Below are positions 15,816 through 18,620 of a stretch of 64,000 nt of DNA, in pieces. Each line of letters opens with the position of its first letter. The first letter of the stretch is position 1. A program made the position numbers and the translations under genes. The notes beneath the pieces were generated by a model. The model was not told the DNA's origin, ran no database searches, and worked only from the letters and a program-made list of their open reading frames with translations. The DNA is taken from IMG/VR virus record IMGVR_UViG_3300035152_000011. The stretch is one strand, 5' to 3'. This stretch comes from a virus.

Positions 15816-17052
15816 GTCTCAATCTGTAAGCCATTGAGCGGGCATTGCGGCGAGACGACGCGAGTACAGTCTCAACCTATTTAGCCGTTGAGCGGGCATT
15901 GCGGTCCAGGCTGTTGGTGGAGAGATCGAACAACAGTCTCAATCTATGAGCCATTGAGCAGGCATTGCGGCTTCGAGCAGACCGTAGCGGTACCAGTCTC
16001 AATCTATGAGCCATTGAGCGGGCATTCCGGCCCAGCCCCGCACACCCAAGACGTACTACCTGCAATCGTCTCAATCTATGAGCCATTGAGCGGGCATTCC
16101 GGCGCGCGCGAGCCGGTGTGCATCGCGGCTCAGCCGGTCGTCTCAATCTATGAGCCATTGAGCGGGCATTCCGGCGGCCTGCTGTCCCCGACGCGTTTTC
16201 GCGACTTCGTCGAGTCTCAATCTATGAGCCATTGAGCGGGCATTCCGGCCTCGTGCAGCTCGTCTCACCGAGACGAGATATACGAGCTGTCTCAATCTAT
16301 GAGCCATTGAGCGGGCATTCCGACGTGCGGCCTTCAGCATCGTCTCGTCGATGGTGGCATGTCTCAATCTATGAGCCATTGAGCGGGCATTCCGGCCGGT
16401 GCGACGGGGTCGAAATCGTCGCTGTCTCAATCTATTCAGCCATTGAGCGGGCATTCCGGCTTGCCGACCGACGCCGAGATTCTCAAGAAGGGGATAGTCC
16501 CAATTTATGAGCCATTGAGCGGGCATTCCGGCGCGATCCGTGCCGGCCATGCGGATGATGAGGTTGAGTCCCAATCTATGAGCCATTGAGCGGGCATTCC
16601 GGCGCAGCGGTCGCTGGGGCACTACTGCGGTGCACAGTGTCTCAATCTATGAGCCATTGAGCGGGCATTCCAGCACGCCCACTTGTAGTAGAAGCCCATG
16701 GAAATCTGCCGTCTCAATCTATGAGCCATTGAGCGGGCATTCCGGCACGAACGGCTGGTCCGTGAGTGCTCGTATGTCATCGGTCTCAATCTATGAGCCA
16801 TTGAGCGGGCATTCCGGCACGAACGGCTGGTCCGTGAGTGCTCGTATGTCATCGGGAAGCACTGTGGAACCTGTCTCAATCTATGAGCCATTGAGCGGGC
16901 ATTCCGGCACCTCGTACGGGCGCTCAACGACGATGCAGGCACTCAGTCTCAATCTATGAGCCATTGAGCGGGCATTCCGGCCCATCCGCGCGGGCAAGCG
17001 GCTCCTTTTCGAGGAAGTCTCAATCTATGAGCCATTGAGCGGGCATTCCGGC
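15816..17052 (-). CRISPR. CRISPR array of 18 repeats (36 bp, consensus GTCTCAATCTATGAGCCATTGAGCGGGCATTCCGGC on the plus strand) and 17 spacers.
   Basis: Direct repeats at 15816, 15869, 15936, 15996, 16068, 16140, 16214, 16289, 16361, 16424, 16497, 16568, 16639, 16711, 16783, 16873, 16946 and 17017. Consensus copies cluster at the 17052 (cas12-proximal) end and decayed copies at the 15816 end, with further remnants back to about 15745. Spacer lengths are 17-54 bp and mostly 35-37. The minus-strand repeat RNA ends in a CUCAAU/AUUGAG hairpin next to the spacer, which fits a type V crRNA read in the same direction as the cas12-like gene. Confidence 0.9.
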
Positions 17053-18620
17053 GGCGGTTCGGTTTTCTTGTGGCGTTTTGCCCACCTGGAAGTCGTTTTG
17101 CGAGCGGTTGGTTTTCTCCACTCGCCGGCTCGGTAGAGCGTCCACATATTTTGAGTACTTATATCGTCGCAGTCCCGCTGCGCACCACACCCCTCGCAGC
17201 GGATCATCCGCTGACCGTTCACGGGGGTAACGTGCCCGCAGCTGGGGCAGCTCGCGGTCGTGAATTCCGCGGCCACAATTCGCATGTTGTCAGCGCCGAA
17301 CACTTCGCGCAGCACCTCTACCGTCTCACCTGGCGCCGCGTGTTGCCCTTGACGTTGTGCCTTCTTCGGTAGTCCGTGTTCCTCCTTGATCTCCTTATGG
17401 GATGTGTTTTTGACGATCACAGTTGCGTATTGGCGACGTAGCTCGCGCACCCACTCGCGCAGGCGTGCGCGCCGTCCTGTCACACTGCGACGACGGCACC
17501 CGCATTCGTAGCGCCAGAGGTGCATCTCGCGCGCGACCCAAGCATCCTGCGTGAAGGTAAGGACGCCGAGGCTACGTAGCTTTCGCACAGCCCGCTGACA
17601 CGATGTCGTTTGTCCGATCACAGGCCAGCGCGACTTCGCAGCGACAAGTTGCTGGTCGCGGTGCGAGCGGATTCTATCCGCGCGGTCAGAGCGCTCCGTC
17701 CACTCAGGGGGCATCCGCAGCTCGTGTGTACAATTGGCAGCGTCACGCGCGTAGCCCAACCGCCAGGAACCGTCAGGCAGCTTGCGCCAACTTACGTCCA
17801 CTGCAACGACGCCTTCGGGGGCCTCGTCTGTGCGCACATCAACGTCCTTGCACGTAAAAGCGACGGACCACACCTCGCGGTCAGCAACGTAGCGACGCCG
17901 TACGTGCACCCAGACGATTCGCCCAGACAGCTCACGGTGCTTCTCGATCCGGATCGGTTCACAGAAGACAGGGGTGCGGCCGTTGCTACCGATCCGGATC
18001 TCTACCGTGTGTCGCCCGAGGCCTCCGCGTGCACGCCGTCCCGTACGTGAATCGGGTGCTTTGTGCACCCGCGCATACGACGTGGGTATTACATTGGGTT
18101 GGATTTGGACTGCTGCGACGTCGCCTTTCTGCCAGGACCGGAAGCGCACTGTACGGAGTACGGATGTGCTCTTCCAGGCCGCTGCGAAGGCCTGTTCGAT
18201 GACGAGGTACGTCCCCCAGTAGAGCCCCTTCTGGATGAACACTGCCCGAAGCGCCTTGGTGTCTAGCAGCGGCACGGCGCGGACGGCGGCACGGACCGCG
18301 GTCCAGTGTGCTTTGCATTTAGTGCACTGGCAGCTCTCGTGGCCAGTCGGGTGGGCCTTGTGATGCTCTTCACACGCATCGCAGCCGCAGTACTTCTTGT
18401 GCGGAGGTGACGTCTTCTTCCATTCGGCTTGGCACTCCTTGCACTGACATCTACCCTGATGCGGCGGAGGCGGCGGTGAGTCGCCACCCCATCCGATCCG
18501 GCGACGCTCGTTCTCGGCCTCGACGAGTGCGTTGTAGTATTGACGGCCCAACTTCATCTGTTGGAGCAGGTCTGGATCTCGGCTAGGACGGGCCCCGTAC
18601 TTGTATACGCGTGTTGCCAT
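17025..18620 (-). CDS. Cas12/TnpB-like RNA-guided RuvC-family protein (compact type V effector candidate, 531 aa).
   Basis: TnpB-like N-terminus MATRVYKYGARP...LGRQYYNALVEAENERRR, a RuvC-I-like block VVAVDVSWRKLPDGSWRLGYA, and a C-terminal Zn-finger/RuvC-III block FTTASCPSCGH...CEGCGAQRDCDDISTQNMW, plus an N-terminal Cys/His cluster. The stop codon TAG (17025-17027) lies inside the first array repeat. Confidence 0.75.
   Translation of the reverse strand: MATRVYKYGARPSRDPDLLQQMKLGRQYYNALVEAENERRRIGWGGDSPPPPPHQGRCQCKECQAEWKKTSPPHKKYCGCDACEEHHKAHPTGHESCQCTKCKAHWTAVRAAVRAVPLLDTKALRAVFIQKGLYWGTYLVIEQAFAAAWKSTSVLRTVRFRSWQKGDVAAVQIQPNVIPTSYARVHKAPDSRTGRRARGGLGRHTVEIRIGSNGRTPVFCEPIRIEKHRELSGRIVWVHVRRRYVADREVWSVAFTCKDVDVRTDEAPEGVVAVDVSWRKLPDGSWRLGYARDAANCTHELRMPPEWTERSDRADRIRSHRDQQLVAAKSRWPVIGQTTSCQRAVRKLRSLGVLTFTQDAWVAREMHLWRYECGCRRRSVTGRRARLREWVRELRRQYATVIVKNTSHKEIKEEHGLPKKAQRQGQHAAPGETVEVLREVFGADNMRIVAAEFTTASCPSCGHVTPVNGQRMIRCEGCGAQRDCDDISTQNMWTLYRAGEWRKPTARKTTSRWAKRHKKTEPPPECPLNGS

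Follow-up and report, generated by a model that had tools for sequence, protein, structure and literature searches.

A miniature Cas12m-like effector with a lysine at the RuvC-II position and a predicted DNA-binding role on a phage-like element

The effector gene, its array and its family

We analysed a stretch of 64,000 nucleotides (hereafter the window) of the IMG/VR virus record IMGVR_UViG_3300035152_000011, on the minus strand of which an open reading frame (ORF) at 17025..18620 encodes a 531-aa protein. A CRISPR array of about 19 repeats of 36 nt lies directly downstream on the same strand, at 15745..17052. The protein is a miniature Cas12m-like effector with the RuvC triad D275-K404-D485, and its sole Pfam match is the Cas12f1-like TNB domain PF07282 (E = 2e-4, under the gathering score), represented by a CCCC zinc finger (C458, C461, C475 and C478; 17187..17249, minus strand) in which all four cysteines are invariant. 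A search of 5.8 billion proteins returned 27 full-length homologs with 38-100% identity, all of them metagenomic. When a profile built from these homologs was compared with solved structures, Cas12m was matched over nearly the full length: the E-values were 9e-41 for 23vw_A ('CRISPR-associated DNA-binding protein Cas12m'), 3.7e-23 for MmCas12m2 (8HIO/8HHL) and 6e-18 for GoCas12m (8PM4), while TnpB followed at about 1e-3 and Cas12f at about 0.07. An AlphaFold2 model calculated from the alignment, with a mean predicted local distance difference test (pLDDT) score of 85, retrieved Cas12m chains in the top four places of a Foldseek search (E = 1e-20 to 2e-16, template modelling score about 0.6), with TnpB next. 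Both rankings identify the effector as a full-length Cas12m homolog, i.e., a Cas12m sequence on a nearly TnpB-sized frame.

The sense strand of the repeat reads GCCGGAATGCCCGCTCAATGGCTCATAGATTGAGAC; the spacers are mostly 35-39 nt long, and the repeats become degenerate at the gene-distal end (15745-15779). Repeats from 25 distinct loci were aligned without gaps, nine of them from the clade whose proteins share the Asp-Lys-Asp triad of the effector (the D-K-D clade, in one-letter code) and sixteen from relatives. The alignment supports a pseudoknot composed of stem I (positions 9-11/20-22) and stem II (14-19/29-34), with 97.8% of cells paired and compensatory changes in 9/9 pairs; 0/500 shuffles reached these values, and slid controls were 31-38% paired. 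Counted from the 3' end, the stems lie at -28..-26/-17..-15 and -23..-18/-8..-3, which is the register reported for PmCas12m and is within one nucleotide of that of MmCas12m2. In MmCas12m2, the 36-nt scaffold of the CRISPR RNA (crRNA) ends in a G:A pair and C(-1), which are read by H269/R270 (PMC10442227). G34-A35-C36 is nearly invariant among the 25 repeats, and the residues of the effector aligned to this reading pair, H228-R229 (17934..17939, minus strand), are 98-100% conserved in the D-K-D clade and 86-90% in relatives. All features of a Cas12m crRNA are present at the locus, namely a 36-nt repeat, a stem with a pseudoknot, a 3' GAC and the His-Arg pair of the WED domain.

A search with 18-mers, allowing <=3 mismatches, found no anti-repeat within about 4 kb, which makes a crRNA-only system likely. 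No cas1, cas2 or cas4 gene was present among the Pfam or PADLOC hits of the 84 ORFs of the 64-kb window, within which the locus has the array-only layout of Cas12m, with neither these genes nor a trans-activating CRISPR RNA (tracrRNA).

The array is also irregular in several places (16783-16908, 16397-16496 and 15852-15935): spacer 3 (54 nt) comprises 18 nt and then spacer 4 in full, indels or substitutions are present in two repeats, and the last repeat is degenerate, which suggests that the array has undergone recombination and deletion. Where two contigs encode identical effectors, their arrays differ in repeat number (21 and 30) and in the first spacer, indicating that the arrays turn over. 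At one clade locus (L025, 1504-2430), five solitary or paired repeat copies are found 0.6-1.5 kb upstream of the effector gene, beside the downstream array.

Could the locus lack a working CRISPR effector, the protein being a decaying relic, a TnpB of the transposon type or a guide protein resembling TldR or Cas12k? We regard this as extremely improbable. It is difficult to reconcile with about 19 repeats with diverse spacers, with arrays that differ between loci with identical effectors, with an intact ORF that is strongly conserved in 41 sequences, and with the placement of Cas12m well above TnpB by both sequence and Foldseek. Moreover, neither TnpA, a Y1 or serine transposase nor any Tn7-family gene was found among the Pfam hits of the 84 window ORFs.

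The RuvC pocket and its lysine

An earlier note on this DNA, made from the letters alone, had described RuvC-I (AVDVS) and RuvC-III (RDCDD) as looking intact and had seen no obvious RuvC-II glutamate, and both observations hold. No variation was seen across the 27 homologs at D275 of the AVDVSWR motif (17796..17798, minus strand) or at D483 and D485 of RDCDD (the DRD-type motif D483-C-D485; 17166..17174, minus strand); D275 lies opposite H317 of MmCas12m2, and D485 lies opposite its catalytic-position D579. At the RuvC-II position, in YATVIVKNTSHKEI, stands K404 (codon AAA; 17409..17411, minus strand), which in the profile alignment faces D485 of MmCas12m2 and the Glu of the Cas12m 23vw. The MmCas12m2 residues H317, D485 and D579 are the structural counterparts of the canonical Asp-Glu-Asp (Omura et al., PMC10442227). 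In the AlphaFold2 model, K404 is predicted to lie at the end of a beta strand (400-405), as expected for a RuvC-II residue, and the nearest outgroup, P0041, has VIVEDID where the effector has VIVKNTS.

The distribution of the lysine was followed in a family hidden Markov model (HMM) alignment of 190 non-identical relatives, drawn from the window, from 81 fetched loci and from the 150 best hits of an exhaustive search (see below). The RuvC-II column contained K in 41/41 full-length D-K-D proteins (471-545 aa) and E in 136/136 D-E-D relatives. Among the aligned relatives, the triad was D-E-D in 141 cases, D-K-D in 47, N-D-D in 10, N-E-D in 8 and D-T-D in 3, with other combinations rare. Published Cas12m variants include N-D-D, N-E-D and D-N-D (PMC11013384, PMC10442227), and the presence of these forms here confirms the wider family as Cas12m; an altered RuvC triad is a mark of Cas12m that the effector shares. 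A lysine at RuvC-II was also found in the larger relatives P0047 (631 aa, VALKDCD), L040 and L052, and a threonine was found in a separate small group (L048/L053/L065), so the RuvC-II glutamate has been replaced repeatedly in the family. P0047 bears a 98-aa REC2-type segment, and the E-to-K change appears to have arisen independently in at least this one REC2-bearing relative.

What does the lysine mean for the function of the protein? In a canonical RuvC site, the glutamate helps to hold metal B. All Cas12m proteins tested, D-E-D forms included, bind double-stranded DNA without cutting it and silence their targets, and Cas12m2 remained unable to cleave when its triad was changed back to D-E-D (PMC11013384, PMC10442227). 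Inactivity probably characterises the family and is not the effect of K404 alone; because Cas12m proteins with a complete D-E-D also fail to cut (PMC11013384), K404 can be seen as the consolidation of a family-wide binding mode. We consider it probable that a large phage or phage-like element carries the gene of a compact, crRNA-only effector of the Cas12m lineage, which acts by RNA-guided DNA binding and silencing without cleavage. The earlier note had likewise suggested a binder or repressor and not a nuclease, and the Cas12m homology, the invariant lysine and the lack of an invariant acidic replacement point in the same direction.

Another question is whether the protein could still be a nuclease, either because a glutamate from elsewhere (E432, E413 or E476) enters the pocket or because K404 and a single metal nick DNA or cleave single strands. 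For TnpB/Cas12 branches, including virus-specific ones, AlphaFold2 models have documented rearranged RuvC-II sites with a relocated glutamate (PMC10691335); E432 (98%), E476 (88%) and E413 (85%) are more conserved in the clade than in D-E-D relatives, and invariance of D275, K404 and D485 would also be expected of an active site. However, the documented rearrangement turns the glutamate into glycine, which leaves room, whereas here the place is taken by a charged and invariant lysine. None of the candidate glutamates is invariant, and E432 is no compensating novelty, as its position is acidic already in 59% of D-E-D relatives. The HMM alignment of relatives contained no clade-specific invariant acidic residue as a stand-in for the RuvC-II glutamate, and beta-5 carries no conserved acid, residues 446-452 being variable among the 27 homologs. 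The earlier note had held that a conserved glutamate aligned to RuvC-II, for example in HKEIKEE, would refute its suggestion, and the alignment placed none there: E410 is variable, and E413, with its 85%, sits on the helix that follows the beta strand and not at the strand end. Considering also that D-E-D Cas12m proteins and Cas12m2 with restored D-E-D do not cut, a retained nuclease is quite unlikely.

For an effector that binds and silences DNA, a course of events can be proposed. The protein would mature its own crRNAs, in which the 36-nt pseudoknotted repeat handle is followed by the spacer, and, once loaded, it would bind complementary double-stranded DNA flanked by a protospacer-adjacent motif (PAM) without cutting it. 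The bound effector would block transcription or replication of its target, for which a competing mobile element is the most likely candidate. Only metal A is held by the H-D-D site of MmCas12m2, where it forms a bridge to a non-target-strand phosphate, and binding and silencing are weakened when the site is mutated (PMC10442227). By analogy with this site, D275 and D485 may still be able to hold metal A, and K404, in the place of the metal-B glutamate, would exclude metal B and add a positive charge, so that two-metal hydrolysis would be lost. The RuvC pocket could then, with two lid lysines, K409 and K412, clamp the displaced strand by its phosphates. In the model, these lysines lie on a helix (408-414) and, with E413, belong to a clade-specific basic patch beside the RuvC pocket (17382..17396, minus strand); K409 is 95% and K412 100% conserved in the clade, neither is conserved in D-E-D relatives, and the description of Cas12m2 (PMC10442227) suggests the lid role.

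A basic C-terminal tail (R507, K508, K515 and H517) was also considered as a clade-specific feature and was dropped, since a similar (F/W)AKRHK motif is present in D-E-D, N-E-D and N-D-D relatives.

Putative zinc knuckles at the REC2 site and the end of the ORF

The Cys/His-rich cluster that the earlier note had reported near the N-terminus, besides the C-terminal CCCC finger, is indeed present, with 16 Cys/His among the 61 residues 50-110. Its residues (H54 C58 C60 C63 / H74 C78 C80 C83 H86 / H94 C97 C99 C102 H105) are arranged in three tandem knuckle units of the form PPH-x3-CxCxxC-xx-[H/E]-[W/H] (H54...W67, H74...H87 and H94...W106; residues 51-106, 18303..18470, minus strand), which presumably bind zinc and stand at the site of the Cas12m REC2 coiled coil. 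The confidence of the model is lowest here (pLDDT 58-71). The core motif of the clade is WGGxxPPxPPH-[DE][DE]-CxCxxCxxHW, in which C99 and C102 never vary and H105 and the histidine of PPH (H54) rarely do. The number of CxxC units per clade protein was one in 29, two in 7, three in 4 and none in 1, the triple-unit lineage comprising the effector, P0002, L004 and P0033.

The earlier note had called this cluster extra. The segment W44-W106 has a median length of 29 aa in the clade (minimum 23) vs 74.5 aa in D-E-D relatives, where it constitutes the REC2 coiled coil ('Roof') of Cas12m (PMC11013384, PMC10442227), and in profile alignments the Cas12m coiled coil is a long insertion relative to the family of the effector. 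Since the clade segment is the shorter one, the knuckle replaces REC2 and is not an addition; the effector lacks the REC2 coiled coil of Cas12m, the segment being occupied by Cys/His knuckles. Thus, the description fits only the triplication, which is lineage-specific, and not the cluster as such, which involves no net insertion: one knuckle appears to be clade-wide, in place of the longer REC2.

The lost REC2 is one of several points that weigh against a DNA-binding effector of the Cas12m kind. Published work credits the REC2 coiled coil and the Arg-rich pocket, both absent here, with tight binding and recognition of the PAM-distal heteroduplex, and without REC2 binding could be weaker, the heteroduplex shorter, or a dimer or partner involved. 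The PAM-distal heteroduplex might be accommodated by the zinc knuckles or by Cas12f-like dimerisation, or the duplex might be shorter, at about 12 bp as in TnpB. An invariant lysine between two aspartates could, in addition, stand for a different chemistry. Finally, no protospacer was found in any collection searched. The window itself contained none for its own spacers, and none was found for its 17 spacers in 50,697 phage records, for 70+ clade spacers in the phage collection or for about 40 spacers in plasmids; exact 22-mers of spacers 1, 2 and 4 revealed no protospacer in IMG/VR, and 342 unique spacers compared with all fetched loci matched unmasked array remnants only.

The effector gene and the array are not merely adjacent. 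The effector gene's last 8 codons and its TAG stop fall within the first repeat (17017..17052, minus strand): the stop (17025-17027) occupies repeat positions 26-28, and the repeat encodes the last eight residues, PECPLNGS. The ORF ended inside the first repeat in 10/10 distinct D-K-D loci (the window, L001, L004, L007, L022, L025, L026, L027, L028 and L033), with the stop at repeat position 2, 11, 24 or 26, and in 0 of about 30 D-E-D/D-T-D loci, where gaps of 3-205 nt separate gene and array. This layout leaves no leader and presumably no separate array promoter. A sigma-70 promoter scan of 15300-19600 gave nothing, which is weak evidence, and terminator-like sites in the same interval were at or below chance. 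Because the array starts inside the ORF, we infer that the gene and the array are probably transcribed together. The position of the stop codon within the repeat also recalls the tnpB/omega-RNA overlap.

Such an arrangement raises the question of whether the D-K-D pocket was kept for cutting pre-crRNA, as in Cas12c and Cas12j, and not for interaction with DNA. With no separate leader, the array must be processed out of the effector transcript, and the pocket residues are invariant, as this explanation would have it; nevertheless, the RuvC mutants D485A of MmCas12m2 and D274A of MsCas12m process pre-crRNA normally (PMC10442227, PMC11013384), and we consider the explanation very unlikely. It is, moreover, compatible with RNA-guided DNA binding and does not exclude it.

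For the DNA-binding effector, the overlap has a further possible consequence. Should the processing cut fall close to the 5' end of the repeat, as it does in PmCas12m, the effector mRNA would lose its stop codon, which would make autoregulation possible. In the most far-reaching form of this idea, the protein would be a phage-restricted mini-Cas12m rebuilt in three linked ways (a lysine for the metal-B glutamate, 1-3 expandable zinc knuckles for the REC2 arm previously believed to be required for CRISPR-type targeting by a monomeric Cas12, and a stop inside repeat 1), in which crRNA maturation throttles effector synthesis, as the stop codon would be stripped at every processing of repeat 1. 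We find this combined picture unlikely.

Genomic setting and comparison with known systems

An exhaustive HMM search of 1.84 billion cluster representatives yielded 4,487 hits at E ≤ 1e-3, of which about 15 clusters scored >500 bits, followed by a sharp fall to at most 335 bits; the clade of D-K-D proteins is therefore small and well delimited inside a very large Cas12m-like family. Relatives of the effector occur on IMG/VR contigs of 81-245 kb, and two of these contigs (147-150 kb, with an effector 75% identical) have several further genes in common with the window. Among 185,579 species genomes, no relative of the effector came to light, comparing 15000-22000 with phages by megablast returned nothing, and the helicase protein of the window reached only about 36% identity to assorted phages. 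In one clade member (L033, 2863-4439), a frameshift seemingly divides the gene into two overlapping ORFs, owing perhaps to pseudogenisation or to faulty assembly.

In the window, about 100 genes, most of them small, follow one another leftward, including those for an integrase, a UvrD-like helicase, ThyX, Ku, an ATP-dependent ligase, a LigD-type phosphoesterase, a protein resembling poly(ADP-ribose) polymerase (PARP) and two proteins resembling phosphoadenosine phosphosulfate (PAPS) reductase. The third-position GC content of the effector gene is 0.69, vs 0.83-0.85 in the adjoining genes, which may be a trace of horizontal acquisition. Two genes upstream of it, at 19728-21293 (minus strand), a 521-aa protein combines WGR, PARP regulatory and PARP catalytic domains (Pfam E = 1e-11 to 3e-31), a eukaryote-style PARP architecture on a phage-like element. 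Alongside this gene there is an end-joining-like set consisting of Ku (40556-41488), the ATP-dependent ligase (22572-23573) and hits to a LigD 3'-phosphoesterase and a PolX-like protein (DNA polymerase beta thumb). An FHA-domain protein is encoded downstream of the array (13620-14441, minus strand), and a relative with 48% identity lies immediately upstream of the effector on a related 150-kb viral contig (L004, 2719-3612). The two PAPS-reductase-like (CysH/DndC-like) genes are located at 28471-29571 and 49409-50905, both on the minus strand; inactivated CysH-like proteins accompany type IV-B CRISPR systems (PMC11656645).

Work on Cas12m has argued that the REC2 insertion lets TnpB-like proteins serve as CRISPR effectors, with only Cas12f and Cas12k, which recruit extra protein, managing without it. 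The present clade, with about 40 array-linked effectors that have zinc knuckles and no REC2, both challenges and tests this requirement. Its invariant RuvC-II lysine, found independently in larger relatives as well, offers a natural experiment on the RuvC pocket as a DNA-binding site in Cas12m. If the predicted function is correct, these proteins would also represent natural DNA-binding Cas12 effectors of about 470-530 aa, smaller than the ~600-aa Cas12m scaffolds engineered for CRISPR interference, base editing and epigenome editing, and could have practical potential.

Among known systems, TnpB (ISDra2, 8H1J) has an active D-E-D, a single long omega RNA and a transposon context, whereas the effector has a multi-spacer array with short pseudoknotted repeats, K at RuvC-II and much weaker similarity to TnpB than to Cas12m (E about 1e-3 vs 9e-41). 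Assignment to TnpB/OMEGA was rejected on the array of 19 repeats with unique spacers, the lack of a Y1 or serine transposase among the Pfam hits and the lysine. Assignment to Cas12k (type V-K, CRISPR-associated transposons), which implies association with the Tn7-like TnsB, TnsC and TniQ and a short array, was rejected as well, as no Tn7 family was represented among the 84 window ORFs, and membership of TldR was likewise dropped. Cas12f (Cas14) resembles the effector in being miniature, in having no REC2 and in possessing an additional zinc finger in its N-terminal lobe. Type V-F proteins are tracrRNA-dependent and dimeric with an active D-E-D, and this assignment was set aside given that no anti-repeat was found, that K404 stands at RuvC-II and that the sequence E-value is about 0.07.

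The closest resemblance is to Cas12m of type V-M (MmCas12m2 8HHL, GoCas12m 8PM4, PmCas12m and 23vw), with which the effector shares full-length homology, the WED-REC1-RuvC-TNB core, the 36-nt pseudoknotted repeat with its 3' GAC and His-Arg scaffold readers, a non-canonical RuvC triad, an array-only locus without adaptation genes or tracrRNA, and a TNB zinc finger (CCCC in the effector, HCCC in MmCas12m2; PMC10442227). Unlike Cas12m, for which H-E-K, H-Q-K, H-D-D, D-E-D, N-E-D, D-N-D and N-D-D have been published, the effector carries D-K-D, which is not among the published combinations (PMC10442227, PMC11013384). Its clade also differs in lacking the 'Roof' with R111/R112 of the Arg-rich pocket and having 1-3 zinc knuckles instead, in its size of 471-545 aa vs about 600 aa, in the ORF that ends inside the first repeat, and in its presence on viral and metagenomic contigs and in none of the species genomes scanned. 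MvCas12m of the myxophage MV-1 (bioRxiv 10.64898/2026.09.14.751636) is similar in being a phage-encoded Cas12m beside an array, without cas1/2/4 and with no protospacers found; however, it is a 610-aa protein with D-E-D (D305, E463 and D555), while proteins of the present clade are smaller, with a D-K-D triad and no REC2. The claim of a first phage Cas12m in that preprint overlooks many IMG/VR loci: Cas12m-type systems are widespread on viral contigs.

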